The notes beneath the pieces are model-generated. The model was not told the DNA's origin, ran no database searches, and was given only the letters and a program-made list of their open reading frames with translations. Made by a program: the position numbers and the translations under genes. From NCBI GenBank assembly GCA_031362565.1, contig JANLSU010000039.1, forward strand, positions 96,001 through 160,000: a stretch of DNA of 64,000 nucleotides. The letters run 5' to 3'. Shown here piece after piece: positions 1 to 31,594 of this stretch (within the stretch, counting starts at the first letter, position 1; each line of letters begins with the position of its first letter). Source of the DNA: a bacterium. Lineage in GTDB: Bacteria; Krumholzibacteriota; Krumholzibacteriia; G020349025.

Positions 1-1436
1 ACCCCCACCTGAATCTTGCGGAAGCGCGCCGGTGCGGCACCGTGCCCCGTTGCCATGATTTGTCCCGGCTGGCCCTTGCCGCACGACGGAATGCCCCACA
101 ACACCCAATGCCGGGCGTCACAGATCGCATCGCAGCGATTCCAAAAATCCGTGGTGGTGCCTTGATAGGTGGGATTGCGCAGCATGCGGCCGCGTTTGCC
201 GTGGCGAATCTCCCAGCCGATTTCGGTCCCGAATTGGAAGTTGAGGCGGTACGAATCGATGCTCCAACTGCGGTTCGTTTCCATCAGGATGCCGTCATCG
301 GTGTCGGCCACGAGGTCTTCGAACCCCCACGTGCCGGGCACGAGCCACACGTTCACCATGCGGATGAGCGGGAAATTGCGCCAGCCGTCGGCCCGCATGC
401 AACCACGCGACGCCGATGCGCCGATGCGCCGCGCCGTTTCGCGTGACGTCAGGTAATCCACGAAGCGGCCGTCGCGCACCAGGTCCCAACTTTGCGCCGC
501 CACACCTTCGTCGTCATACCCGAAGGTGCCCATGCCGCGCGGACTCGTGGCATCGGCACGCAGCGTCACGAGCGGCGAGCCGTAACACAATTCGCCCTGC
601 AAGTCCGGGGTGAGAAAGGATTGCCCGGCATAGTTCGCTTCGCTGCCCAGCACGCGGTCGAGTTCGGCCGGATGCCCGCACGACTCGTGGATTTGCAGCC
701 CCAACTGCGAACCCCCGAGAATGACATCCCGCGCCCCGGGGGGACACGGATCGGCGACCAAGAGCGCCGCGGCTTCCGACGCGACGCGCGGCGCGTTCTC
801 CAGCAGCCGCCAATCGGCCAGCATTTCATAGCCCCGGGTCTCGAACTGGCCGCGGAAAGAGTTCGGATACGACCGCACCTGGATTTCGCCGTCGCCGACC
901 GCGGTCGCCACATATCCCGCCCCGCTCGACAGGATTTCCTGGTCGATGCGCGCCCCCTCGGTGCTGGCAAAGAATTGCTGCTTTTTGGCGAAATCCATGC
1001 TACTGCGCGCCACGCGCACCGCCTTTTCGGCGCGCAGCGCCCGGTCGATCGCGAATAGAAAATCGAGCTTGGCGTCGAGTGAGATGCTGAACGGATCAAT
1101 CTCGAAGGGGGTGCGGTAGGAGGCTTGGAGGGCCTTTGCCGGGGCCATTTCGACCGGCGAACGGCACCCGCGTGCCGCGGCGCGTGCCAGAACCACCGCT
1201 TCCTGGGCCGCCGCAACCGCCGCTTCCGGCGCGTCGCCGGCGCGCGACGCGAATCCCCACGCTCCGCCGGCGAGAACCCGCACGCCGAAGCCTTCGTCGT
1301 CACGCTCGTCGAGAGATCCGACCTGCTCGTTCTTGGTGGTGAGACTTTGGGTGCGGGTGCGGACGACGCGAACGTCCGCGTAGTCCGCACCGGCGGAGCG
1401 CGCGGCGTCCAATGCGCGGGCAGCGAGGTCTCGCAC
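1..1436 (-). CDS. tldD: TldD/PmbA-family metalloprotease (TldD type), 3' end runs off the window
   Basis: Frame not in the ORF track because there is no stop in the window. GTG at 1436 after GGAGG reads MRDLAARALDAARSAGADYADVRVVRTRTQ...DEGFGVRVLAGGAWGFAS. The window edge reads CGKGQPGQIMATGHGAAPARFRKIQVG, which includes the TldD C-terminal CGK motif. Confidence 0.88.
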   Translation of the reverse strand, partial: MRDLAARALDAARSAGADYADVRVVRTRTQSLTTKNEQVGSLDERDDEGFGVRVLAGGAWGFASRAGDAPEAAVAAAQEAVVLARAAARGCRSPVEMAPAKALQASYRTPFEIDPFSISLDAKLDFLFAIDRALRAEKAVRVARSSMDFAKKQQFFASTEGARIDQEILSSGAGYVATAVGDGEIQVRSYPNSFRGQFETRGYEMLADWRLLENAPRVASEAAALLVADPCPPGARDVILGGSQLGLQIHESCGHPAELDRVLGSEANYAGQSFLTPDLQGELCYGSPLVTLRADATSPRGMGTFGYDDEGVAAQSWDLVRDGRFVDYLTSRETARRIGASASRGCMRADGWRNFPLIRMVNVWLVPGTWGFEDLVADTDDGILMETNRSWSIDSYRLNFQFGTEIGWEIRHGKRGRMLRNPTYQGTTTDFWNRCDAICDARHWVLWGIPSCGKGQPGQIMATGHGAAPARFRKIQVG

Positions 1437-6549: not shown

Positions 6550-7476
6550 TCAAGACAGTGAGATTCGATACTGTGCGGCGAGTTGCTGCAACTCGGCGGG
6601 CGGAATGTCGAGTTCCTGCGCGGCGCGAATGGCGTCGCCGGTATGCCGGCGGAGTGCCGCGCGCAGTGCCGACTCGGTGGCCTGGTCGCGGGCCATGGCG
6701 AGCGTCCGCGGCACTGCAGCGCCATCGATCCGCAAGTCCGCCGGACCGATCACATCCCCGGTGAGCAGCGCCGCGCCGCGGCGGATACAGTTTTCCAGCT
6801 CGCGAACATTGCCGGGCCATTCATGCCCTCGTACCACGGCACGCGCTGCGTCGGAGAGACGTAACGTGCGGCCGAGCTCGACACCACGCGCCGCCACGAA
6901 TGCATCCGTCAGCAGATCGAGGTCGCTGCCGCGCGCGCGGAGTGGTGGCAACATCAGCACGATTTCGTTGACGCGGTGATACAGGTCGCGGCGAAACGCG
7001 CCGCCCTCGACCATCCCGGGAAGGTCTTGATGCGTTGCAGCGATGAATCGCACCTCGATGGCGCGGTCGCGGGCACCGCCCAAGCGCTGCACCCGGCGGT
7101 CCTGTACGACGCGCAAGAGTTTGGACTGGACGGTGAGCGGCAGTTCGGCGATTTCATCCAGAAAGAGGCTGCCGCCGTCGGCCCGTTCGATCCATCCGGA
7201 GTGCGCCGCGACGGCGCCGGTGAAACTGCCCTTTTCGAATCCGAAGAGTTCCGACTCCACGAGATTGAGCGGCAAGGCGGCGCAGTTCACGGCAACGAAC
7301 GGACCCGCCGCACACGCACTGCGCCGGTGCAGGCTGCGGGCGACGAGTTCCTTGCCGGTGCCGGTTTCGCCACGCACGAGGATGGTGAGATTGGACGGCG
7401 CGACGCGGTCAATGGCGACGAATACGGCGCGCATCGCCGCACTGTCACCCAGCATGCCATCGAACGGCTCCGCCAT
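6550..7476 (-). CDS. Sigma-54-dependent enhancer-binding protein (AAA+ plus Fis-type HTH) without an N-terminal sensor domain
   Basis: GETGTGKE Walker [30 protein letters not shown] and [10 protein letters not shown]. The likely ATG at 7476 sits directly before the AAA domain. Confidence 0.9.
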
Positions 7477-7520: not shown

Positions 7521-7550
7521 ATCTTAGGGAGCGGTGGCGCCCAGCGTCAA
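7521..7550 (-). promoter_or_regulatory. Putative sigma-70 promoter for the enhancer-binding protein gene
   Basis: Minus strand TTGACG-N18-TAAGAT, about 45 nt upstream of ATG 7476. Confidence 0.4.
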
Positions 7551-9889
7551 GGCAGCGGATCGGGCGCGCCGAGGCTGTCGGCGTAGACCTGCGCGAGCAC
7601 CGCAACGTCGGTGCCCGGATAGCGCAACTGGACGGTCGACAAAAGTGCGACGGCGCGTGGTTTGTCGGCGAGTTGTTCGACCGCGACATGGGCGGCCAAC
7701 TCGAGCAATGACCCGGCGCGTGGATCGTTGCCGAAGGACGCCGAGACGCTATCGAGGAAGGCCACGCTGCGCTCCCAGTGCCCTTCGAGACCAAAGCATT
7801 CGCTCATGAAGCGCGCCGCGAGCAGGGCCGGACGCTCGGTGCCGAACTGCTGAATGACGCTCCGGTAGCCTTGCATCACTTCCGGCACCAGGGTGTGCGC
7901 CTCGTCGGCTTGGCCGTGTTCTCGCAGCATGCGAATTTCTTCGAGCGGCGCGACAAGTCCGGCGGCGGTCGCCGGATAGACGTCGCGAAGCTGCGCGTAC
8001 AGGCGCCGCGCGTCGCGAATATCGCCGCGCGCCACTTCGACGCGCGCCAGACCAAGCGTCGCTTCGGACCGGCCGGCCTCCGAGCGCGCCTCCGCCGCGG
8101 CGTGCGTGAACGCGTCGTCCGCCGCGTCGAGTTCCTGAGCGCGCATATGAATCTGCCCGGCCAAAAGCCATCCCAAGACCCGGTGCTGGTTGTCGAACGT
8201 GGCGCGTTCCGAACTCAAACCGGCCAAGATTCCCAGCGCATCCTTGTCGCGGCGCAGCCCACTCGCGAGCAAGCTGGCCTCCGCAACGAGCATCCCGCCG
8301 TCGTGACCTTCGGGGTCGTGGCGGGCGCGCAAGTCATGCAGTGCCGTGAAAGCGTCGTCCCAACGCCCGGCGCCGAGCAGCAGTGCGAACCGGGCCGTGC
8401 GTGCATCGCGCGCTTCTTCGCCGCGTTCGGCTGCCGCCTCGAGGGCCCGGGCGCCGCGCTCGACCCAGGCGGTGCGGGCCTGCTGATCACCGCGACCCTG
8501 AAACCGCTGCACGACATAGCCGGCGATTTCGACACCATTCGCGTGCAGCGGCCAGCGGCCGTCCTGCACGCCCCGCAACCACACCTCGTAAGCGGCGACC
8601 GCGTCGGGCCAATTGCCGTGGGCGTCGAGAACGCGGGCGAGTTCGAGTGCCGCGTCACCGCACACGCCGCGATAGGCGCAGTGGTCGATGAGGTCACTGA
8701 ACTCGGCACGGGCAACGTCCAAGCGCCCGGCGTGCGCATACGCGGCCGCCCGTCCCAGCAAGCCCTGGCACGCGAGCCGCGCGAGGTCGTGCTCCAAGCC
8801 TTCTGGAGCCCGCTTCGCACTCCGTTCGGCGCCAACGCGTTCGACGGCATCGCCATAGAGCTGGGCGACGCCAAGCCAGGCGAGCGTGTCGACCGGCGCC
8901 GCCGTTTCGAGGCCACCTTCGCGAAGCCGCGCGCGTTCGACGCACCGTTCGGCGTCGTAACGCAGCGTCAGGTTGCGGGCGTCACGCTCATGGGCGCAGC
9001 CGGCGCACGCGCCGAGCGCGACAACGACGAGCATCGTCGTGGCGACGCGCACCAACGGCGCTCCGGGCGCGGCTTTACGGCGCACCCGGGTTCGTACCGC
9101 GAAATAGGCCGACAGGCCGGCGGCCAGAAATCCGCCGACGACTTCCGCCGGCAACTGTCCGGCGAGGGCGGCGAGAATCCAGTCTGGATCCTGCGCCGCT
9201 CCGGCGCGAATGGCCGGCGTCCGCAGGATGATTCCCGGCACGTGCAAGATCGCAATCGCGACGACGGCGAGCGGCAGTGAAATCGGCAGATGCGCCACGA
9301 GAGCGACGCTCGCCCGCACCGCCTTCCAGGCTCCAATGTCGTAGAACACGACGAAGGCGGGAGCTGTGAACAGCAAGAGCGAGATGACGCCGCCGGCGAG
9401 CAACGCCACCAGAGCGGCTGATTCTGGGCTCGCCACCAACGCGGTCACGCGCAGCGCGAGTACCGGTACCGCGAGCAGTACCAACGCGAAGACGACGAGG
9501 GTCATTCCACGCCGGATGGCGCCGCGTACCGGTCCGAACAGCGGGACGGGTTGCCGGCCCCAAGCGGCGCCGAGGCGCCGCATCACCACCGCCTGCACGA
9601 ACACGCCAATGGTGACGAAACTCACGATGTCCATCGTTTGCGCGACGAGAGGCAGATGCAGCGGCAGGTCCGGATAGTGAACGTGGCGCACGAGCCCGGG
9701 AGCGATGGCCAGCGCTGGTACGAGCACGAACCATGGCACCCAGTCGAAACGCGCCACGAGCAGCAGCACGCAGCCCTTCAGCAGCGCGACGACGACGAAG
9801 GGCAGCCAGGCAAGCGGATCCAACACCTGGCCAGCTACGGCTCGCATCGCGCTCATGAACGGACGCAATGGATGCGAATGGAATCTCAT
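7547..9889 (-). CDS. Polytopic membrane domain fused to a TPR-like helical repeat domain
   Basis: About 6-7 hydrophobic segments at the N-terminus, then an internal LGACAGC segment and Ala/Leu-rich TPR-like repeats (e.g. [31 protein letters not shown]). The start is uncertain (ATG 9889 or a nearby downstream ATG). Confidence 0.7.
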
Positions 9890-10008: not shown

Positions 10009-10024
10009 TGGCGCTTCCTTTGCA
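10009..10024 (+). promoter_or_regulatory. Sigma-54 -24/-12 promoter motif (rightward)
   Basis: TGGCGCTTCCTTTGCA has exact GG-N10-GC spacing and lies about 44 nt upstream of GTG 10068. Confidence 0.65.
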
Positions 10025-10067: not shown

Positions 10068-10544
10068 GTGAATCCTCGTCTGCTTCTTGTCGGAGCTCTT
10101 GCAGTCGCGACCTGCGGGTTGGGCGTTCTGTTTGGACACCGCAACGCGGTCGCGTGGCAACGCGCCGGTGGACCGGCCCGCATCCCGGACGCGTGGCGCG
10201 GCGCGCCGTCCGAACCTGCCGCCTGGGTTTTCGTGCGCCCCGGGTGCCGCCATTGCGGCGATCACCTTCAAGCCCTCGAGCGCGCCGTTCAAACGCGCCC
10301 GGAATCGTTGCGCGCCGGCATTCTGGCGCGCATTCGCATCGTCGGTGCGGCCGCCGAACGGCCCGGCGGGAGCCTGGCGTTGCCTGATTCCCTGCGCCGC
10401 GTGTTCGACGTCCGGATCGCGCCGACCACGTGGTGGATCACCGGGGATGGCGTGATTCGGAGCGCGTGGCGTGGGGCCCGCGGCGCGGCGGCGTGGAACC
10501 GCGGCCTCGAATTCCTCGCCGCCCAGCCAGGGGTGACGCCATGA
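10068..10544 (+). CDS. Membrane-anchored thioredoxin-fold (CxxC) protein
   Basis: N-terminal hydrophobic anchor; WVFVRPGCRHC; putative cis-Pro loop IAPTTWWITGDG. The stop overlaps the next ATG (ATGA). Confidence 0.75.
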   Translation: MNPRLLLVGALAVATCGLGVLFGHRNAVAWQRAGGPARIPDAWRGAPSEPAAWVFVRPGCRHCGDHLQALERAVQTRPESLRAGILARIRIVGAAAERPGGSLALPDSLRRVFDVRIAPTTWWITGDGVIRSAWRGARGAAAWNRGLEFLAAQPGVTP

Positions 10545-11131
10545 CGGCGCGGCGTTGGTTGTGTGCAGCCGCATGGTGTGCGGCAACATCGGCGCGGCAC
10601 ATCGCCGCGGTACCGGCGTCACACCTGTGGGCGCTGGACTTCGGCGCGCTCCAAGATCCGCACGCTTGGGTGGCGCTCGAGAGCTGGGGACCCGATTGCG
10701 CCTGGGTCGGTGCGGCACCGGGCGATCTCCAGCATGCGGTCGACGGCTGTGGACCGGCGGCCCTGGCGCTCCTGCTGCGCACCGCGGGCCGTCCGGTGCC
10801 GCAGGACGTGCTCTGGAGTGCGTGCCGGATGCGCGGCGGCGGCACCACACTCGGATGCCTGGCACGTGCGGCGCGGACTTTCGGTCTCCCGGTTCAAGTG
10901 CGGGTCGTGGCGGATTTTACGGCGCTTGAATTGCCGGCGATCGTGCATTTGCAACGCGGCCACTTCGTGCTGCTGGAGCGCTGCAACGCGGCCGTCGCCG
11001 AGATCACGGATCCGGCCTGCGGCCGGATCCGGGTGCGAGGTGCAACCCTCCGCCGCATGGCATCCGGTGCGGTTCTCGTCCGCGATGCCGCGACGCGTGG
11101 CGCGCCCCACTCCGCTGGAGGCCGGTCATGA
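10541..11131 (+). CDS. Stand-alone C39-family cysteine peptidase
   Basis: Q-x5-C (QHAVDGCGPAALA), GTTLGCL, LPAIVHL, GHFVLL and ITDPACG give the oxyanion Gln and a full Cys-His-Asp set. No ABC domains are fused. Confidence 0.88.
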   Translation: MTARRWLCAAAWCAATSARHIAAVPASHLWALDFGALQDPHAWVALESWGPDCAWVGAAPGDLQHAVDGCGPAALALLLRTAGRPVPQDVLWSACRMRGGGTTLGCLARAARTFGLPVQVRVVADFTALELPAIVHLQRGHFVLLERCNAAVAEITDPACGRIRVRGATLRRMASGAVLVRDAATRGAPHSAGGRS

Positions 11132-11808
11132 GGCGCGGATGGCACGAACTCCTGCTCTGCACGCGAACAGTCGTCGCACCGGGTGAGATGTGGTCGGCAG
11201 TCGCCGTCGCGCCACGCACGACACTCGCGATCGCCTGCGTCGGCGGCCTCGAAGCACTGAATCTGGTGCTGCAGTCATGCGTTCTGTGGCCGGCATTCGC
11301 CGGCGACCCGTTGGTCTTCGATGCGCCGGGTGGAGCGCCCGCCGCGTTGCGGGCCTTCTGCGTCGCACGAGGTGCGGCGATCGCGCTGGCACCCGCGGCC
11401 GTCGCGGTGCGTGCGACGGCACTCGGGGTCCTGCTGTACGGCGCTTGTGGCCGGGGCGCGCGGCTGCCGCGGGTCGGCGTGCTCGTGGCTCTCGCCGCGT
11501 ACGCCGAGATCATCCCGTGGATCGAGAGTGCGGCCCTGACGATCGCGATCGCGATCGCCGCTCCACAGGACCTCGATGCGCTGCGCACCGTGCAGTTGCA
11601 CGCCGGCCTCGACCTCGTGTGGCCCTCAGCGTCCGCCGGGTGGGCACCATGGCTTGTTGCCGTGAATGCGTTCACCGCCTGGTGGGCGCTCGTCGTGGCT
11701 TGCGGGCTGGTGCGGATTGCCGGCTTATCGCGCCCGCGGGGCCTTGGCGTTGGACTCGTACTGGCAGCATCGCGCGTTGTGATCGACGTCGCGTCGACGC
11801 GATTTTGA
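11128..11808 (+). CDS. Yip1-family membrane protein
   Basis: VVAPGEMWSAV start pattern, about 5 hydrophobic segments, and a typical C-terminal NAFTAWWALVVACGL. ATGA-coupled to the C39 gene. Confidence 0.7.
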   Translation: MRRGWHELLLCTRTVVAPGEMWSAVAVAPRTTLAIACVGGLEALNLVLQSCVLWPAFAGDPLVFDAPGGAPAALRAFCVARGAAIALAPAAVAVRATALGVLLYGACGRGARLPRVGVLVALAAYAEIIPWIESAALTIAIAIAAPQDLDALRTVQLHAGLDLVWPSASAGWAPWLVAVNAFTAWWALVVACGLVRIAGLSRPRGLGVGLVLAASRVVIDVASTRF

Positions 11809-11872
11809 GGCGCTGAATCGCCGTCGACCGAAGGAGCGAACCCCGATTGACTTCCCGAGAATTGGATCCGTC

Positions 11873-12211
11873 ATGTTTCGACACATCTGGAACGCCGGAC
11901 GCGTTTTGGCAGGCGCGGCCGCGGTGATCGTACTCTTCGTGCTGCCGGATTCACCGGCATTCACGCCAACGGCTGGCGCCGGCGTCGCCGTTTCGGTTCG
12001 AACCCCAGCGCCGGGCGACTCCAGTGTTTTGGACCCGGTGGCGTTGGCGAGCGACGCGTCCGGTGGGTGGAAGTTCCCATTGGGGCTAAGAGCCTGCGCA
12101 CTCTCGGTCGGAACCGCAATCGCGGGCCTGGCGTTCGTGCCGGTCGCGCCGCTCGGCGCGTTGAATGCATTCACGGCCGGCTTTCTGTCGATGTTGTACA
12201 CGTGTTCATGA
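11873..12211 (+). CDS. Putative bacteriocin/RiPP-like precursor A (signal peptide + GG leader + 47-aa two-Cys core)
   Basis: Hydrophobic N-terminus; VLDPVALASDASGG followed by WKFPLGLRACALSVGTAIAGLAFVPVAPLGALNAFTAGFLSMLYTCS. The RBS is weak. Confidence 0.65.
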   Translation: MFRHIWNAGRVLAGAAAVIVLFVLPDSPAFTPTAGAGVAVSVRTPAPGDSSVLDPVALASDASGGWKFPLGLRACALSVGTAIAGLAFVPVAPLGALNAFTAGFLSMLYTCS

Positions 12212-12250
12212 GCTCATTCCCCCGGCACTCTCCTGAAGGATCTTTGAATC

Positions 12251-12628
12251 ATGTGGAGCAAACAGATGTTCATCGCCGCCGCTCTCGTTGCGGCAACGAT
12301 CGCGCCGGCCGCACCGGCGCCGGCGGCGCAGCGCACGGCACCGGTTGCACCGGTGTTCGACGTGAGTTTCTCGACTTCGGTGGCGGCCGCACGGGCTTGT
12401 GACGTGGCGGACGCGTGGTCCCCGTTGGTGCAAACGGATGCCAACGCGGCCCGCGGCGCCGGGTTTCTCACGTGGTGGCGCGGCCACGGCAAGCAGATTG
12501 CCGAGGCCGTCGGATGCGCCGTCGACGGCGCCGCCATCGGCCGCATGCTGGCGATCGGCATGGCCGCCGCCGGCGGTCCTTGGGCGGCAGCCGGTTTGGC
12601 CGCTGCAGCGCTCGCGTGTCTCGGGTGA
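12251..12628 (+). CDS. Putative bacteriocin/RiPP-like precursor B (signal peptide + GA leader + 55-aa two-Cys core)
   Basis: AAGGA RBS; Sec-like signal; PLVQTDANAARGA followed by GFLTWWRGHGKQIAEAVGCAVDGAAIGRMLAIGMAAAGGPWAAAGLAAAALACLG. Confidence 0.7.
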   Translation: MWSKQMFIAAALVAATIAPAAPAPAAQRTAPVAPVFDVSFSTSVAAARACDVADAWSPLVQTDANAARGAGFLTWWRGHGKQIAEAVGCAVDGAAIGRMLAIGMAAAGGPWAAAGLAAAALACLG

Positions 12629-12638
12629 TGGTTGAGAG

Positions 12639-12678
12639 GGACGGAGCGCGCGGAGCAAAGCCGGCGCTCCGTCCGTTT
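12639..12678. terminator. Hairpin between convergent genes, probable terminator
   Basis: 11-bp perfect stem GGACGGAGCGC/GCGCTCCGTCC followed by GTTT. Confidence 0.55.
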
Positions 12679-12977
12679 CATGGCGCTTCGGACGGCTTTT
12701 CGCGCGGCTGGGTATCTTGGATGTGCGGCGCCGGCGCGGGTGCGGCGGGCGGTGCAGCCGCCGCAGCTTGAGCCGCCGCCGGCTTCGGGGGGTCGTCGTC
12801 GTGCAGCCCAACGATTTTGTCCGCGTCCAACTCGTCGCGTAGTTCGCGCGATGCCTGGCGGAAGCGCTTGATCGTCCGCCCCAAGGACTCACCCACCTCG
12901 GGCAAGCGTTTCGGCCCTAGGAGCAAGAGCGCCAGGACCAGAATGATGAGCAGTTCGGAACTGCCGATGTTTCCCAT
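12678..12977 (-). CDS. tatA: Twin-arginine translocase TatA/TatB-family subunit
   Basis: MGNIGSSELLIILVLALLLLGPKRLPEVGESLGRTIKRFR. Confidence 0.9.
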   Translation of the reverse strand: MGNIGSSELLIILVLALLLLGPKRLPEVGESLGRTIKRFRQASRELRDELDADKIVGLHDDDPPKPAAAQAAAAAPPAAPAPAPHIQDTQPREKPSEAP

Positions 12978-13057: not shown

Positions 13058-13513
13058 TCAGTGCTCCTGGGCCGCGCCACCGAAGTCGCGGCCGAGAACG
13101 ACCGTCACATCGACCAGCAGCGACGCATCGCGCTGTTCGAGGACCTGGCCGTGTCCCAACGTTGCGGCGACTTGCTGCGCGACTCCGATCCGGCCACGGC
13201 GCACGAGGACCAGTGTTTCCCGATAGGTCTGAGCGTCTGCATTCCCGACCGTTACCACGTCCAACCCACGCGCCCGCAGCAGGTCGGCAGCACGTCCGGC
13301 GAGTTCCGGAATCCCACTCCCGTTCATGACCTGCACCTGCGGAGCGCGCGCCGATGCGCCGGTCATCTTGTGCGTCGCACGCAGCGCCAGCGACGCAGTC
13401 GCGGCTACCAGGCCCCCGAGCAAGATCCAAGTCGCCGGCGTCAGACGCTGGGACCAGTGTGTTGCAGCGCGCCGCCGCCGCCGCACCGGCCGCCGCACCG
13501 GCCGCGGGCTCAT
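13058..13513 (-). CDS. LytR C-terminal domain protein
   Basis: N-terminal TM segment; VQVMNGSGIPELA, VGNAD and C-terminal DVTVVLGRDF. Confidence 0.85.
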   Translation of the reverse strand: MSPRPVRRPVRRRRRAATHWSQRLTPATWILLGGLVAATASLALRATHKMTGASARAPQVQVMNGSGIPELAGRAADLLRARGLDVVTVGNADAQTYRETLVLVRRGRIGVAQQVAATLGHGQVLEQRDASLLVDVTVVLGRDFGGAAQEH

Positions 13514-14004
13514 GAACGCTCGCGCTCGAAGGCCACGCGGAGGCGTTCATAACTGCTCTCCAGGCTCTCCGGCAAAACGCGGGTGGCGCCGACGGTGGAC
13601 ATGAAGTTGGTGTCGCCGTTCCAGCGCGGCACGAAATGCACGTGCAGATGCCCGACCGCACCAGCCCCCGCCGGCCGGCCGATATTCACGCCGACGTTCA
13701 GCCCCTGCGGCTCGTACGCGGCGCGCACCGCCGCTTCACAGTGGCGCATCGCCGGGGCGAGTTCCGCCGCTTCCTCGGCGCGCAAGTTCACGAATCCTTC
13801 CTCATGCCGCACGAGCGCCAGCATCAAATGCCCGTTGCTGTACGGGTAGGCGTTGAGAATCGCATACCAGTGGTTCCAACGCCACACGATGCCGTGCCGC
13901 CGGTCGTCACCCGCGGCCGGAAACTCGCACAAGAAACAGCCGCTCGGCGCGCCGGCCGCGCCCTCGACGTAGGCGCGACGCCAAGGCGCCCACAGTCTAT
14001 GCAT
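13510..14004 (-). CDS. HIT-family hydrolase (Ap4A phosphorylase-like)
   Basis: MHRLWAPWR, CFLC, LNAYPYSNGHLM and HLHVHFVPRW. Confidence 0.9.
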   Translation of the reverse strand: MHRLWAPWRRAYVEGAAGAPSGCFLCEFPAAGDDRRHGIVWRWNHWYAILNAYPYSNGHLMLALVRHEEGFVNLRAEEAAELAPAMRHCEAAVRAAYEPQGLNVGVNIGRPAGAGAVGHLHVHFVPRWNGDTNFMSTVGATRVLPESLESSYERLRVAFERERS

Positions 14005-14746
14005 GCCGGACGCGCTCCCGCAGGATCGATTCGACTTCGCGCAACTGTTCCGGCGTGTTGACGCCCAAAACCTCACGCGGATCGCGGCACACCTGCGCTG
14101 CCACCCGCCGCCCGAGACCCAGGAGAATCTCGAGCGTATCGGTCAGATAGTACTCGCCTTGCGCGTTGTCGGCGCGCACTTGTCCGAGCGCCAAGAAAAG
14201 ATCGCTGATCGAAAAGGCGAACAAGCCGGAATTGATTTCGCGCCCCGCCCGCTCCTCTTCGGTTGCATCCTTGTGCTCGACGATGCGCCTGACGGAGCCG
14301 TCCGGGCCGCGCACGATGCGACCGTACCCGGTCGGGTCATCGACTTTGGCGCTCAAGACCGTCGCCGCCGCGCCTGCCGCATGGTGCGTCGCGAGCAAGT
14401 CGCGGAGCGTCTCGGCAGTCAAAAGCGGCGTATCGCCGCACAGCACGAGTACTGTTCCCTCGACGCCGGCGAGCAGCGGTTGTGCTTGCAGCACCGCGTG
14501 GCCCGTACCGAGCTGCTTTTCTTGCCGGGCGAAGGCGACACCGCGCGGCGACACGGCGCGCTGCACCGCATCGGCCTGGTGCCCCACGACCACGACACTC
14601 CGGCGCACCCCGGCGCCTTCGACGGCATCCAGCACGTGGTCGAGCATCGACCGGCCCAGCACCGGATGCAACACCTTCGCGAGGTCCGAATTCATCCGCT
14701 TGCCGACACCTGCGGCAAGAACAATCGCGGCCGTCTCGTGCTTCAT
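13997..14746 (-). CDS. Sugar-phosphate nucleotidyltransferase (GlmU N-terminal domain only)
   Basis: LAAGVGKRM, QLGTGHAV, GDTPL, PTGYGRIVR, EINSG and EYYLTD. The gene ends without the hexapeptide acetyltransferase domain. Confidence 0.88.
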   Translation of the reverse strand: MKHETAAIVLAAGVGKRMNSDLAKVLHPVLGRSMLDHVLDAVEGAGVRRSVVVVGHQADAVQRAVSPRGVAFARQEKQLGTGHAVLQAQPLLAGVEGTVLVLCGDTPLLTAETLRDLLATHHAAGAAATVLSAKVDDPTGYGRIVRGPDGSVRRIVEHKDATEEERAGREINSGLFAFSISDLFLALGQVRADNAQGEYYLTDTLEILLGLGRRVAAQVCRDPREVLGVNTPEQLREVESILRERVRHA

Positions 14747-28847: not shown

Positions 28848-31594
28848 GGTCCCTTTCCAGCGATATCCGCGATCTCGCTTCGCAACCGGTCGCACCGGTC
28901 CGCGAGGTCCACACGGCGGGCTCGTTCGCCGTCGACCACCGCGGCAGGTGCCTTGTCCACGAAACCCGGCTTGGCGAGCTTGCCGTCCAATGCCGCCAGA
29001 TCCCGTTCCGCCTTGTCCAACTCGCGCTGCAACCGGTCCCGTTCGGCGCCCAAATCCACCAGTCCGCCGAGCGGCAAGTAGATCTGCAGATCACGCACCA
29101 AGAGCGAGATCGCGTTGTCCGGCCGCACTGCCGTCGGCTCGACGCTCTCCAGCTTCGCGTGCAGCTTCAGGAGCTCGGTCTCTTCCACACTCAGGCCGGC
29201 ACCGCTTCGCGTGTCTTTCTGCACGAGCGCCGGTGCCTTTTTGCCGGGCGGTACGTTGCGTTCCGAGCGCACCGTCCGGATCGCACTCGCCGCTTCGATC
29301 ATCAGCGCGAACCGGTCGACACTCGCGGCGTCGCGTAGCGCCGCAATTTCGCGCGGGAACCGGCTTGTGATGACCAGCCCCGCGGTCCCGGGGATGCGGC
29401 TCCAAAGCTCTTCAGCCAGGAACGGCATCAGCGGCGCGAGCAACTTCGTTGCGGATGACAGCAAGACGAAGGCCACGGCGTGGGCACTGCGCGCGGTCGC
29501 GCGGTCAGCGCTCTGGAGGCGTGGCTTGATCGACTCCAGATACCAAGCGCAGTACTCGTCCCAGAAGAAGTGATAGAGGTCCGAGGCCGCATCGTTGGCG
29601 CGCAATGAATCCAAGTTCCGGCGCATCGTCGTGACGGCTTCCGTGTAGCGGTGCAGAATCCAGCGGTCCTCCAGTCGCAGGTCCGTCTCGATGCCCGCCG
29701 GCAGCGGCCGTCCGAACGACTCGGCCCAGAGCGCCGCGAGCCCTTCGGCGCCGGCCGCTGGTGGCGTCACCGGCGCATCGCCTTCCAGACCCAGCTCGGC
29801 GACAAACCCATGCGTGCTGGCGCTCGTCAACACGAGACGTGCCGCATTCCAGATCTTGTTGGCGAAGTGCTGGCCGGTCTCGACGTTCTTGGCGTCGAAG
29901 TACGTGTCCTGCCCGGGCGGCGACAACATGACGGTGGAGAAGCGCACCGCGTCCGCACCGCAGTTGGCGATGAGATCGAGCGGGTCCGGCGAGTTGCCGA
30001 GCGACTTCGACAACTTGCGCCCCTTGGCGTCACGCACGATGCCGTTCAAGAGCACTTGCGAAAACGGCACGTCGCCCATGAATTCGAGGCTCGCCATGAT
30101 CATGCGCGCCACCCAGAAGAAAATGATTTCGTAACCGGTGACGAGCAGAGTCGTGGGGTGGAAGCGATTGAGATCCGCGGTCTCCTCCGGCCAGCCCATC
30201 GGCGAGAACGGACACAGCCACGACGAAAACCAGGTGTCGAGGACGCTTTCGTCTTGTTGCAAGCGCGCGTCGCCGCATTTTTCGCACTGTGGCGGCGCGG
30301 CGTGCGCCGCCACCGCATGCTGGCACGCCACGCACTCGTACACCGGGATGCGGTGCCCCCACCAGAGTTGCCGCGAGATGCACCAATCTTGAATGTTGCG
30401 CGTCCAGTGCAGGTAGACGTTGCGCCAACGTTCCGGATAGAAAGTGACGCGGCCGTCTTCGGCGGCCCGCACCGCGGGTTCGGCGAGCGGCTTCATGCGC
30501 ACGAACCATTGCTGGGACAGGTAGGGTTCGATGACCGTCTCGCAGCGATCATGGCGCCCGATCGCCAGCGTGTGCGCTTCCACCTTCTCCAAGAGTCCAT
30601 CGGCCTCCAGCCGTTCGACAACGCGGGCCCGCGCCTTGAAGCGATCGAGACCCGCGAACGGGCCGGCAAGGGCGTTCATGACGCCCGCCGGGTCGATGAC
30701 CACCGGTGACTCGAGGCCATGGCGCTTGCCGACGTGAAAATCATTCGGATCGTGGGCCGGAGTGATCTTCACCATGCCGGTGCCGAACGCCGGGTCGACG
30801 TACGTGTCGGCGATGACCGGGATCTCGCGCCCCAGGATCGGCAGCCGCAGCATGCGGCCGACGAGTTCGCTGGCGCGGGGATCTTCGGGATGAATCGCGA
30901 CCGCGACGTCGCCCAAGATCGTCTCGGGGCGCGTCGTCGCGACGCGCACGAAACCGCTGCCGTCGGCAAACGGATAGCGCAGCGTCCAGATCTTGCCCTG
31001 TTGCTCGACGTGCTCTACTTCTTCATCGCTGATGGCGGTGCGGCAGGCCGGGCACCAGTTGGTGATGTAGGCGCCTTTGTAGATGAGCCCCTTGGCATGC
31101 AACCGAATGAACACTTCGACCACGGCGCGGCTCATGCGTTCGTCGAGCGTGAAGTACTCGCGGTCCCAGTCGAGCGACCAGCCGAGGCGTTGCATCTGTT
31201 GCACGATGTGGGCGTGCGACTTGGCCTTCCACTCCCAGCAGCGCTCGACGAAGGCTTCGCGTCCGAGCGCCGCCGGGTCGATCCCCTCTTGGCGCAGGTT
31301 TTTCTCGACCACCTTCTGGGTCGCGATCCCGGCGTGATCCGTACCCGGCCACCAGACGGTTTCGCGCCCCTGCATACGCGCATAGCGCACGAACACGTCC
31401 TGCAACGTGTTGGCGAGCACGTGCCCCATGTGCAGCACACCGGTGACGTTGGGCGGCGGCAACAGCACGACATAGGGCGGCAGGCCGTTGGTCGACGGCA
31501 CGGGAGCGAACGCCCGGCTCTCCTGCCAGCGCGCCACCCACGGCGGTTCGACTTGCGCGGGGTCGTAGGCCTTGTCGATCGGGGCGCGATCCAT
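28844..31594 (-). CDS. valS: Valine-tRNA ligase
   Basis: PPPNVTGVLHMGH, PGTDHAGIATQ, WCISRQLWWGH and KLSKS; C-terminal coiled coil. Confidence 0.99.
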   Translation of the reverse strand: MDRAPIDKAYDPAQVEPPWVARWQESRAFAPVPSTNGLPPYVVLLPPPNVTGVLHMGHVLANTLQDVFVRYARMQGRETVWWPGTDHAGIATQKVVEKNLRQEGIDPAALGREAFVERCWEWKAKSHAHIVQQMQRLGWSLDWDREYFTLDERMSRAVVEVFIRLHAKGLIYKGAYITNWCPACRTAISDEEVEHVEQQGKIWTLRYPFADGSGFVRVATTRPETILGDVAVAIHPEDPRASELVGRMLRLPILGREIPVIADTYVDPAFGTGMVKITPAHDPNDFHVGKRHGLESPVVIDPAGVMNALAGPFAGLDRFKARARVVERLEADGLLEKVEAHTLAIGRHDRCETVIEPYLSQQWFVRMKPLAEPAVRAAEDGRVTFYPERWRNVYLHWTRNIQDWCISRQLWWGHRIPVYECVACQHAVAAHAAPPQCEKCGDARLQQDESVLDTWFSSWLCPFSPMGWPEETADLNRFHPTTLLVTGYEIIFFWVARMIMASLEFMGDVPFSQVLLNGIVRDAKGRKLSKSLGNSPDPLDLIANCGADAVRFSTVMLSPPGQDTYFDAKNVETGQHFANKIWNAARLVLTSASTHGFVAELGLEGDAPVTPPAAGAEGLAALWAESFGRPLPAGIETDLRLEDRWILHRYTEAVTTMRRNLDSLRANDAASDLYHFFWDEYCAWYLESIKPRLQSADRATARSAHAVAFVLLSSATKLLAPLMPFLAEELWSRIPGTAGLVITSRFPREIAALRDAASVDRFALMIEAASAIRTVRSERNVPPGKKAPALVQKDTRSGAGLSVEETELLKLHAKLESVEPTAVRPDNAISLLVRDLQIYLPLGGLVDLGAERDRLQRELDKAERDLAALDGKLAKPGFVDKAPAAVVDGERARRVDLADRCDRLRSEIADIAGKGP

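Follow-up and report, generated by a model that had tools for sequence, protein, structure and literature searches.

Positions 10068 to 12628 of the window, by which we mean the whole 64,000-nucleotide stretch analyzed here, hold an operon of a sediment bacterium on the forward strand. The first gene (10068-10544, +) starts with GTG and encodes a membrane-anchored thioredoxin-fold protein of 158 aa with a CRHC motif, referred to here as the Trx-like protein. The second gene (10541-11131, +) encodes a stand-alone C39 cysteine peptidase of 196 aa with a signal-like N-terminal extension, and its ATG overlaps the TGA of the Trx-like gene in an ATGA arrangement. The third gene (11128-11808, +), which is ATGA coupled to the C39 gene in the same way, encodes a Yip1-related-family membrane protein of 226 aa. 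They are followed by two small ORFs, sA (11873-12211, +; 112 aa) and sB (12251-12628, +; 125 aa), and by a strong G+C-rich hairpin (12639-12674, no strand assigned), which separates sB from the convergent tatA gene. The three coupled genes, the two small ORFs, and the hairpin had been named in an initial annotation and are present at these positions. The fold over 12626-12690 has an energy of -36.9 kcal/mol (z score of -4.03), with 0 of 200 shuffles being equally stable, and the hairpin is likely a two-way terminator for sB and tatA. It is missing from the output of a simple terminator scan because it has no T-run.

A sigma-54-type -24/-12 element, TGGCGC-N5-TTGCA (10009-10024, +), precedes the start of the Trx-like gene by 44 nt and has one mismatch to TGGCAC-N5-TTGC. 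L017, L012, L013, and L014 also have such an element, 45 to 53 nt ahead of their Trx-like genes, which together with the window copy makes five of the five operons examined. At two or fewer mismatches, the motif count across the window is 90 versus 74 expected, which is not above chance, and the support for the promoter therefore comes from position and conservation and not from the motif alone. In addition, a gene encoding a sigma-54 activator (bEBP; 6550-7476, -) with an AAA+ domain and an HTH, without a sensory N-domain (Sigma54_activat, E value of 2.5e-64), adjoins the operon, as it also does in L012 to L014, L017, L020, and L030. The activator is probably 308 aa long and starts at the ATG at 7476, a start that was placed by the onset of conservation and by the composition of the preceding 106 codons. 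The positionally conserved element and the neighboring activator gene both support the sigma-54 control that had been proposed for this locus.

In the textbook view, C39 peptidases are domains of bacteriocin exporters and lie in the cytoplasm. The C39 protein of this operon matches PF03412 over residues 63 to 181 with an E value of 1.7e-14 (54.3 bits versus a cutoff of 22). Q64, C70, H141, and D157, which we take to be the catalytic residues of the family, are invariant in 14 of 14 sequences and in 12 of 12 aligned relatives, in agreement with the intact stand-alone peptidase of the initial annotation. Its close relatives are all 116 to 287 aa long. The longer relatives are weak matches to PCATs, the C39-ABC exporters (best E value of 1.3e-8); 23 of 25 carry ABC Pfam domains, and those nearest to the C39 protein are peptidase domains of bacteriocin exporters. 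In NCBIfam, the C39 protein matches NHLM_micro_ABC1 with an E value of 3.1e-14. An identity as a PCAT was ruled out, the 196-aa protein ending in a stop codon with the Yip1-family gene next to it. The PF03412 domain occurs at two places in this genome, whose completeness by marker genes is 100%, and both places are outside ABC transporters. The claim that no ABC exporter accompanies the peptidase thus holds genome-wide for PCATs.

All 13 members of the C39 family with full N-termini have the catalytic Cys at residues 61 to 87, and the 19 PCAT relatives in which the motif was located have it at residues 14 to 29. The 13 members carry an N-terminal extension of 45 to 60 residues with a basic and hydrophobic stretch, by a crude reading of hydrophobicity and charge, and this extension is absent from PCAT domains. 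In one member the extension ends in a lipobox-like LAAGC. The h-region of the peptidase in this genome is weakly hydrophobic, with a best 10-residue Kyte-Doolittle mean of 1.62. As described in PMC5557850, FapD of the Pseudomonas Fap functional amyloid is a free-standing C39 peptidase with a Sec signal, is active in the periplasm, and serves amyloid secretion. The protein studied here was rejected as a FapD by the NCBIfam model NF058616 (12.7 bits versus a cutoff of 330).

The two small ORFs share one plan, in which a signal-like N-terminus is followed by a variable pro-region, G-[G/A/S], and a core with two Cys residues that are 29 to 37 residues apart. The pro-region ends in GG in sA and in GA in sB, giving candidate C39 sites after G65 and A70, respectively, and each core has exactly two Cys, so the anatomy first described for them was correct. 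The sA core has 47 aa with its Cys 35 residues apart, and the sB core has 55 aa with its Cys 33 residues apart; a third Cys lies in the sB pro-region. All 18 small ORFs at the 7 loci contain, in order, the signal-like N-terminus, a linker, G-[GAS], a Cys, a gap of 29 to 37 residues, a second Cys, and a tail of 1 to 2 residues. The G-[GAS] motif was located by a motif script in 17 of them and by eye, as the GG of L017_a, in the alignment, and exactly two Cys are present in 17 of the 18 cores. The signal-like N-termini that had been noted on the small ORFs are present, and C39 carries one as well, the basis being a crude reading of hydrophobicity and charge.

It is extremely improbable that the small ORFs are chance open frames in G+C-rich DNA rather than genes, even though GC3 does not set them apart from antisense frames, and this explanation is already contradicted by conservation. 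Orthologs of sA are present as L017_a and L023_a, with a tblastn match in L021 (E value of 7e-4), and the dN/dS values are 0.56 for sA versus L017_a and 0.48 for sB versus L017_c. In all 11 orthologous small-ORF pairs, dN/dS ranges from 0.19 to 0.56 at about 50 to 60% nucleotide identity, which indicates protein-level conservation under purifying selection. The small ORFs in L017 are also linked to one another by ATGA or overlapping coupling. A profile search with sB identified 36 relatives (E value of ≤0.001), none named beyond "hypothetical protein," and a lack of conservation, which the initial annotation had regarded as damaging to its proposal, was not what we found.

No Pfam or NCBIfam family was matched by sA, and no consistent family, including known bacteriocin models, was found in Pfam or NCBIfam among the 30 peptide family members scanned. 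Of 32 small relatives from the wider sB family, 31 keep the spacing of the two Cys and the tail, 27 have G-[GAS], and 25 have a signal-like N-terminus, and many of the relatives carry a textbook signal whose end is of the AxA type. Distant relatives retain a WW/basic motif and have their Cys exactly 33 or 29 residues apart, and distinct paralog types are each conserved between genera. The AF2 model of sB (30-row alignment, pLDDT of 70) predicts helices at residues 3 to 17, 71 to 103, and 109 to 124, with a turn at residues 104 to 108. The helix from 71 to 103 would begin directly after G69-A70, and C89 and C123 are each 17 residues from the center of the predicted turn.

That C39 processes the small ORFs is suggested by several of these features. 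In all 18 local peptides and most relatives, G-[GAS] immediately precedes the conserved core at a single position of the alignment, the predicted core helix begins right behind it, the catalytic tetrad is invariant, and peptides and peptidase strictly co-occur in complete systems. We consider it unlikely that C39 has another envelope protein as its substrate or plays a nonproteolytic or chaperone role, with the small ORFs being ordinary membrane proteins and their G-[GAS] incidental. Such an explanation would nevertheless fit the frequency of G-[GAS] dipeptides in Gly/Ala-rich compositions and the weakness of the canonical leader pattern, whose hydrophobic residues at -4, -7, and -12 were not seen by eye in the sA and sB pro-regions. 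In addition, G-[GAS] is missing from 4 of the 32 relatives (P0029, P0035, P0046, and P0049), all of which retain both Cys and the WW/basic motif, and GG-type cleavage therefore cannot be family-wide. FapD is likewise presented without a clear substrate in PMC5557850.

If C39 cleaves the small ORFs, the compartment is most plausibly the periplasm. We regard as very improbable the classical arrangement in which the hydrophobic N-termini are not signals, C39 is cytoplasmic, and an unlinked transporter exports the peptides. That arrangement would match the characterized bacteriocin-type C39 domains other than FapD, all of which act on the cytoplasmic side according to PMC5557850. However, it conflicts with the basic and hydrophobic extension of the C39 family, the textbook signals of many peptide relatives, the anchored extracytoplasmic type of the partner oxidoreductase, and the absence of a PCAT from the genome. 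No short leader ending in G-[GAS] is present in the small ORFs; the motif lies 65 to 70 residues from the start, behind the signal-like segment and the pro-region, and leaders of that length would far exceed GG leaders.

The partner oxidoreductase is the Trx-like protein, whose N-terminal hydrophobic segment (residues 5 to 23) forms an anchor that is invariant in six of six orthologs, as are C60, C63, and P119; we read P119 as the cis-proline of the thioredoxin fold. The protein itself has no Pfam match, including to thioredoxin families; Thioredoxin_2 matches one of the six orthologs (E value of 0.0061), and a PDB profile search gave ResA at an E value of 1.8 only. The AF2 model (pLDDT of 83) has a thioredoxin fold, and Foldseek returned 141 PDB matches at an E value of ≤0.001 (best, 7.3e-7), with the anchored oxidoreductases ResA, StoA, CcmG, PilB-N, Etrx, and SdbA type at the top. 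The anchor, the invariant CxxC, and the fold match bear out the anchored CRHC thioredoxin-like protein of the initial annotation. ResA, StoA, CcmG, SdbA, and Etrx share with it an N-terminal anchor, a thioredoxin fold, a CxxC, and a conserved proline, whereas the Trx-like protein falls below Pfam thresholds, has CxHC in five of its six orthologs, and is encoded in a peptide maturation operon and not with cytochrome c or spore cortex genes. The CxHC dipeptide is typical of oxidizing thioredoxin-fold members. The structural neighbors of the model include both oxidizing and reducing kinds, and since the best of them (ResA, StoA, CcmG, PilB-N, and Etrx) are mostly reductants, the protein might instead keep the catalytic Cys of the peptidase or the Cys of its substrates reduced rather than form a disulfide.

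The third gene product was assigned to Yip1 in the initial annotation. Five hydrophobic segments are predicted by a Kyte-Doolittle window, which is a crude method, and PF04893 (Yip1) matches three of nine orthologs (best E value of 1.7e-12), but the window protein has no Pfam family match even at an E value of ≤10, and the NCBIfam YknW_fam model reaches an E value of 0.14. The nine orthologs share 20 invariant columns.

The gene neighborhood recurs in other genomes. The operon lies at the same chromosomal site in three of three genomes of a sister genus and on several metagenome contigs, and its relatives carry three small ORFs; gene order is retained in G001, G005, and G006 and in L017 to L023. 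Among 208 genomes of the phylum, the peptide family, the C39 family, and the close Yip1 family are found in the same four. Matches to the peptide profile among the 208 are limited to G000, G001, G005, G006, and G003, plus one weak match (E value of 8.3e-4), and the genomes with profile matches are those with C39 or close Yip1 homologs. The syntenic site in G003 has a truncated Trx-like frame and part of a Yip1 gene joined to what is left of a peptide gene, without C39, which suggests that the module decays as a unit. The locus occupies a fixed chromosomal site and is vertically inherited within one bacterial family.

Taken together, these data are consistent with a sigma-54-dependent operon that makes two small peptides (three in relatives) matured outside the cytoplasm. 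Each would be made as a prepropeptide whose Sec-type signal directs it into or through the inner membrane; signal peptidase I would probably remove the signal there and leave the variable pro-region of 20 to 50 residues on the core. C39, exported by its own signal-like N-terminus, would cut after G-[G/A/S], and the anchored CxxC protein would handle the two core Cys, most likely closing a disulfide. Because the two Cys are equidistant from the predicted turn, this bond could staple a helix-turn-helix hairpin. The Yip1-family protein may be a membrane partner that confers immunity or that scaffolds or escorts the hydrophobic hairpins. The products would be Trp-rich, mildly cationic, Gly/Ala-rich hairpins acting jointly on membranes, as a multipeptide bacteriocin-like toxin without an ABC exporter. 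We place middling confidence in this reading, in which Sec export is followed by C39 cleavage in the periplasm and by closure of a disulfide in a helical hairpin, the outcome being a multipeptide product active on membranes. The overall interpretation of the initial annotation, which had proposed Sec export with cleavage and disulfide closure in the periplasm, is supported in part; small-ORF conservation, signal-like N-termini, and the absence of a PCAT, the points at which computation could have contradicted it, were all favorable.

More specifically, but only tentatively, the product may be a two- or three-component disulfide-stapled hairpin toxin of a diderm, exported by Sec, matured by a periplasmic free C39 and its own thioredoxin, and partnered by a Yip1-family escort or immunity protein, with the C39 logic uncoupled from ABC export. 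Small-xxx-small Gly/Ala-rich helices, a Trp-rich cationic segment, and co-encoded peptides are usual in multipeptide membrane-active bacteriocins. The same maturation route might also yield envelope-resident or secreted structural or signaling peptides, such as hairpins residing beside the Yip1-family protein in the inner membrane, components of a matrix or biofilm, or a set of pheromones that could be switched on by the sigma-54 activator, an alternative that is possible if doubtful. It would suit cores that are very hydrophobic and short (about 2 by 15 residues), and such a Sec-exported hairpin may stay in the inner membrane of its producer; no outer-membrane exit route is encoded near the operon. 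The syntenic, vertically inherited, nonmobile locus points the same way, and the fixed site together with the lack of a recognized immunity family at the locus is less typical of bacteriocin loci. The WW/basic motif with its exact Cys spacing resembles a partner-binding constraint more than an arms race, and each paralog type has been kept between genera. GG-motif peptides with nonantibiotic roles are also known, from amyloid secretion with FapD and from the small GG proteins that enable cyanobacterial biofilms (PMC4997328). On the other side, the helices, the Trp-rich cationic N-terminal segment, and the two to three co-encoded peptides have the look of a bacteriocin, the module is dispensable, being absent from 202 of the 208 phylum genomes and decayed in G003, and no amyloid-type repeats or FapF-like channel were found.

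With membrane-active peptides as the favored product, the operon appears to be an undescribed variant of bacteriocin maturation, with FapD and Bacillus SDP as the closest precedents. It resembles the PCAT-dependent double-glycine peptides (class II bacteriocins and the microcin V type) in its bacteriocin-processing-type C39, its G-[GAS] before a Gly/Ala-rich hydrophobic core, its disulfide-capable Cys pair near the C terminus, and its several peptides per operon. It differs in that C39 is not fused to an ABC transporter, in having a Sec-like signal and pro-region where those systems have a leader of 15 to 25 residues, in having no membrane fusion or TolC-type gene near the operon, and in peptides that match no bacteriocin family model. 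FapD is likewise free-standing and has a Sec signal, of which the basic and hydrophobic extension read crudely here may be the counterpart, and GG/GA motifs are suspected in its Sec-exported operon partner, no substrate being defined in PMC5557850. However, the C39 protein here is not its ortholog, and in place of amyloid-repeat subunits and a FapF-type channel the operon encodes the Trx-like protein, the Yip1-related protein, and peptides whose two Cys would close a hairpin. The SDP toxin of Bacillus subtilis is hydrophobic, has 42 aa and a single intramolecular disulfide, and is cut from its precursor by dedicated accessory proteins, and the Yip1-family protein YknW belongs to the SDP resistance pump YknWXYZ (PMC4887032 and PMC6818787). 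The logic is similar, with a disulfide toxin, operon-encoded maturation proteins, and a Yip1-family protein handling the toxin, but the components of the two systems showed no homology to one another (an E value of only 0.14 for YknW_fam), the processing of SDP needs SdpA and SdpB and not a C39, and its producer is monoderm and so has no outer membrane. The claim that the locus has no characterized counterpart therefore requires qualification: a periplasmic Sec-exported C39 and a Sec-exported, disulfide-bonded, matured toxin are both known, but their accessory genes and peptides are not homologous to those of this operon.

If the proposed route is correct, ribosomal peptides would gain a new class of export and maturation, and for the first time a periplasmic C39 would have obvious substrates to which it is linked genetically, FapD being the one characterized periplasmic exception and lacking a defined substrate in PMC5557850. 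Because a periplasmic-type C39 lies beside small proteins with an aligned GG-type site, synthetic peptides offer a direct way to test the mechanism and specificity of such enzymes. Active products would show that diderm bacteria need no type I secretion system to produce double-glycine peptides, and genome-mining rules would widen, since most such tools require a PCAT. An unannotated peptide family and a concrete role for a bacterial Yip1 protein would then also be added.

Upstream of the bEBP gene and in the same orientation is a gene encoding a membrane protein with C-terminal TPR repeats (7547-9889, -), which matches TPR families such as TPR_6 (E value of 7.2e-9). It is present in G000 and L017 only, with 57% identity in L017 and no tblastn match in L012 to L014. 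A sigma-54-like element, TGGCAAGGTCCTTGC (9916-9902, -), lies just upstream of this gene.

On the plus strand of the window, which has a G+C content of 65%, five genes lie in a row between 10068 and 12628. The first (10068 to 10544) starts with GTG and encodes a thioredoxin-like (Trx-like) protein of 158 amino acids (aa). It is followed by genes for a C39 peptidase (10541 to 11131; 196 aa) and a Yip1-family protein (11128 to 11808; 226 aa), each with an ATG overlapping the preceding stop codon (ATGA). The small ORFs sA (11873 to 12211; 112 aa) and sB (12251 to 12628; 125 aa) come next, after spacers of 64 nucleotides (nt) and 39 nt, respectively. A G+C-rich hairpin (12639 to 12674), common to tatA and sB, lies between sB and the convergent tatA gene; the fold over 12626 to 12690 has an energy of -36.9 kcal/mol and a z score of -4.0, and 0 of 200 shuffled sequences were equally stable. 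A terminator scan returned one site, an unconvincing one within sA. The coupled genes, small ORFs, and hairpin described in the initial annotation are all present. Also convergent to the operon, on the minus strand, are tatA (12678 to 12977; TatA_B_E, E value of 1.5e-17) and the genes for a LytR_C-domain protein (13058 to 13513) and a HIT-family protein (13510 to 14076), which keep their position in all relatives examined.

The same neighborhood recurs in other genomes. The order of Trx-like, C39, Yip1-family, and small-ORF genes is kept in all three sister-genus genomes (G001, G005, and G006) with the same flanking genes, a sigma-54 activator on one side and tatA, LytR_C, and HIT genes on the other, and also on the metagenome contigs L017, L020, L021, and L023, with shorter pieces on L018, L019, and L022. 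In these relatives, three small ORFs lie downstream of the Yip1-family gene. The metagenome loci were found with a closer C39 alignment (A2); the single C39 protein as the query against genome contigs gave 599 pattern matches and no true relative. Candidates at L016, L024, and L007 to L011 were rejected as members of the stand-alone C39 family; their C39 domains lie within long proteins, including a peptidase-containing ABC transporter in L016. Across the phylum (208 genomes), only the genome of the window (G000), the three sister-genus genomes, and G003 matched the peptide profile, apart from one weak match (8.3e-4). Of 41 genomes searched with the stand-alone C39, G000, G001, G005, and G006 contain it. 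At the syntenic site of G003 (L030, G003:C1:3638765-3642022), a truncated Trx-like frame with CARC remains, as does an incomplete Yip1 frame joined to what is left of a peptide ORF, from which the last Cys has been lost; no C39 is found, and the activator, tatA, LytR_C, and HIT neighbors are intact, which we read as decay of the entire module. A Yip1-peptide fused form like that of L030 is also seen in the database protein P0038 (179 aa). A Trx-like gene and a C39 gene that are more distantly related (profile E values of 2.8e-16 and 2.9e-37, respectively) occupy L022:3-922, on the plus strand of a metagenome contig of 1,056 bases and 60% G+C. This contig stops short of any downstream gene, so that such a pair may also occur beyond the close clade.

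The C39 protein matches PF03412 with an E value of 1.7e-14 (54.3 bits; cutoff, 22); in NCBIfam, it scores best against the N-terminal peptidase domain of a bacteriocin exporter of the NHLP type (3.1e-14). Gln64, Cys70, His141, and Asp157, noted at first sight as an intact catalytic set, do not vary in either of two alignments, one of 14 relatives and one of 12. All 12 relatives of near length are small (116 to 287 aa). The 25 longer relatives match more weakly (best E value, 1.3e-8), and 23 of them carry ABC transporter Pfam domains, so this C39 is a free-standing offshoot of the exporter-type peptidase. The family has 45 to 60 additional N-terminal residues: the catalytic Cys lies at residues 61 to 87 in all 13 members with complete N termini, versus residues 14 to 29 in the exporter relatives (pattern located in 19 of 25). 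Basic residues and a hydrophobic segment open the extension, and in one member it ends in LAAGC, resembling a lipoprotein signal.

The absence of an ABC exporter, which had been proposed for this system, is borne out in G000, for which marker genes indicate 100% completeness. PF03412 was found there in two places, the operon and an open frame of 788 aa that has a signal-like start (L002:1-2367, minus strand, corresponding to G000:C93, around 28924 to 29271), and neither carries ABC domains. The 788-aa frame matches Peptidase_C39_2 (1.8e-10) and C39 (2.6e-8), with weak TPR matches and no family for the C-terminal ~380 aa. Open frames of 745 to 760 aa with the same C39-type domain occur in the genomes G002, G021 (two), and G027, and the 788-aa frame may represent another exported C39 architecture. 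No membrane fusion or TolC-type protein was found among the other genes in the 14 kb of the window examined, which encode housekeeping-type proteins.

The small ORFs appear to be real genes forming one family. An alignment of 18 small ORFs from seven loci reveals the plan first recognized in sA and sB: basic residues and a hydrophobic N-terminal stretch, a variable linker, a candidate C39 site (G-[G/A/S]), and a core. The site was located by script in 17 of the 18, and in the remaining one (L017_a), a GG is visible by eye. It is followed by a short polar or aromatic segment and then by Cys, 29 to 37 Gly/Ala-rich hydrophobic residues, Cys, 1 or 2 residues, and the stop, with exactly two Cys in 17 of 18 cores. 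The head is Trp rich and mildly cationic, with net charges of -1 to +2. In all 11 orthologous pairs, dN/dS values are 0.19 to 0.56, close to those of C39 (0.28) and the Yip1-family gene (0.57), with dS saturated in the deeper pairs; GC3 by frame did not distinguish the small ORFs from antisense frames. A sequencing-run search listed no RNA run and seven DNA runs, one of which contained all sampled words and may be the sample from which the window derives; the others had shares of 0.05 to 0.06.

An sB-type profile searched against 1.84 billion representative proteins gave 36 matches at E values of ≤0.001, of which 4 long repetitive proteins were set aside. Of the 32 small relatives, Cys-(29-34)-Cys followed by no more than 3 residues is kept in 31, a G-[GAS] ahead of the core is present in 27, and a signal-like N terminus is seen by a crude rule in 25; many have textbook signals with AxA-type ends. 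Ten relatives checked are singletons; they come from short contigs of metagenomes, and "hypothetical protein" is the most specific name that any of them carries. No fitting family was found for the peptides in Pfam and NCBIfam. In the AF2 model of sB (30-row alignment; pLDDT, 70), a signal helix (residues 3 to 17) and a disordered linker precede a helix (71 to 103) that begins directly past G69-A70, a turn (104 to 108), and a second helix (109 to 124). Cys89 and Cys123 each lie 17 residues from the turn center in this model and would thus face each other in an antiparallel hairpin. Foldseek returned no PDB match for the model. A "class IIc cyclic bacteriocin" cluster in the ESM Atlas (sB, 0.76) was treated as chance, with the best look-alike (0.84) below the lead level of 0.9.

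The Trx-like protein has a hydrophobic N-terminal anchor and matches no Pfam thioredoxin family. Its CxxC and one proline are invariant in six of six sequences; the active site is CRHC in the window and CSHC, CRHC, CRPC, CDHC, or CGHC in orthologs. The AF2 model (pLDDT, 83) matched 141 PDB chains at E values of ≤0.001, the best neighbors being anchored extracytoplasmic thiol-disulfide oxidoreductases, namely, ResA, StoA, CcmG, PilB-N, Etrx, and SdbA; a PDB sequence-profile search with its alignment gave nothing significant (ResA at an E value of 1.8). Oxidoreductase genes, bdbA and bdbB, sit in the sublancin operon, and C39-VKOR-thioredoxin fusion proteins occur in bacteriocin loci of Bacteroidota. 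Because the structural neighbors of the model are mostly reductants, the Trx-like protein may instead protect the thiol of the C39 peptidase.

The Yip1-family protein has five hydrophobic segments and conserved loops at residues 54 to 75 and 146 to 172. The window protein itself has no Pfam match, and three of nine orthologs match PF04893 (best E value, 1.7e-12). Among the 208 phylum genomes, its profile matched at E values of <1e-80 in G000, G001, G005, and G006 only and at 1.2e-17 in G003. Weaker matches (1e-6 to 1e-12) in 59 further genomes were rejected as the same system: at 25 such loci (L031 to L055; ~1.5-kb flanks), no C39, Trx-like, or peptide homolog was found, and we take these matches to be ordinary Yip1 paralogs.

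Sequence and models together are in line with stepwise maturation in the periplasm, in which the prepropeptides would be exported by Sec and relieved of their signals, an exported C39 would cut them after G-[GAS] to give peptides predicted to begin at W66 (sA) and G71 (sB), the anchored thioredoxin-fold protein would handle the core Cys pair, and the Yip1-family protein would be the membrane partner. We consider the processing part alone somewhat probable and the complete chain an even bet. Four sB relatives without the motif (P0029, P0035, P0046, and P0049) and the lack of a classical leader pattern in the sA and sB pro-regions count against GG-type cleavage. A complex prediction for C39 (residues 27 to 190, 12-row alignment) and sB (residues 40 to 125, 6-row alignment), run without controls, scored 0.07 against a mark of 0.32 and was taken as evidence neither for nor against the reading. 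Gly/Ala-rich helices, a Trp-rich, mildly cationic head, and several co-encoded types are the look of multipeptide membrane-active bacteriocins, and the presence of these features here, with two or three types per operon, suggests such a product. Vertical inheritance of the operon at one constant site counts against a toxin; in the main rival explanation, the maturation route is unchanged and the products are envelope or signaling peptides, which we regard as rather unlikely. Hairpins this hydrophobic may stay in the inner membrane permanently, and no outer membrane exit route for the peptides is evident.

Counterparts are known for every element of the operon, among them oxidoreductases encoded in peptide operons, C39/GG processing, Sec-dependent bacteriocins, and FapD. 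The initial annotation regarded the architecture as uncharacterized. This holds insofar as no description of an operon with Trx, a stand-alone C39, Yip1, and Sec-signal GG peptides was found in the full-text literature (subscription journals may differ), but given these counterparts, we take the operon to be a variant and not a new category. Judged by profile matches, the peptide, Yip1-related, and Trx-like families lie below or outside the Pfam and NCBIfam models. In the literature searched, a periplasmic C39 was found in the FapD paper only; FapD is the one precedent for a periplasmic, catalytically active C39, with its substrate still unclear in that paper (PMC5557850). The C39 described here scores 12.7 bits against the FapD model, below its cutoff of 330. 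The nearest functional analog is Bacillus SDP, a hydrophobic toxin of 42 aa that contains one disulfide and is released from its precursor by SdpAB; YknW, a Yip1-family protein, belongs to the SDP resistance pump (PMC4887032, PMC6818787).

Sigma-54 control, suggested from the sequence alone, gained support. A -24/-12 element of the TGGCGC-N5-TTGCA type, TGGCGCTTCCTTTGCA (10009 to 10024, plus strand), lies 44 nt before the Trx-like GTG and is one mismatch from the sigma-54 consensus. In four of four other operons examined (L012 to L014 and L017), an element that carries GG and GC in the correct register precedes the start of the Trx-like gene by 45 to 53 nt. Sigma-54-like matches with ≤2 mismatches across the window are not above chance (90 versus 74 expected), and a sigma-70 promoter scan gave 0 sites. 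The adjacent sigma-54 activator gene (6550 to 7476, minus strand; E value, 2.5e-64) is divergent to the operon; its product probably starts at 7476 (308 aa) and would then comprise AAA+ and HTH parts only, apparently with no sensory N-domain. A gene for a TPR-repeat membrane protein (7547 to 9889, minus strand), present in G000 and L017 and absent in the sister genus, precedes it, and a second sigma-54-like element, TGGCAAGGTCCTTGC (9916 to 9902, minus strand), lies 13 nt before its ATG. About 9 kb upstream of the operon, a PmbA/TldD-family metallopeptidase gene (3 to 1436, minus strand), open at the window edge, is probably a housekeeping gene unrelated to the operon.
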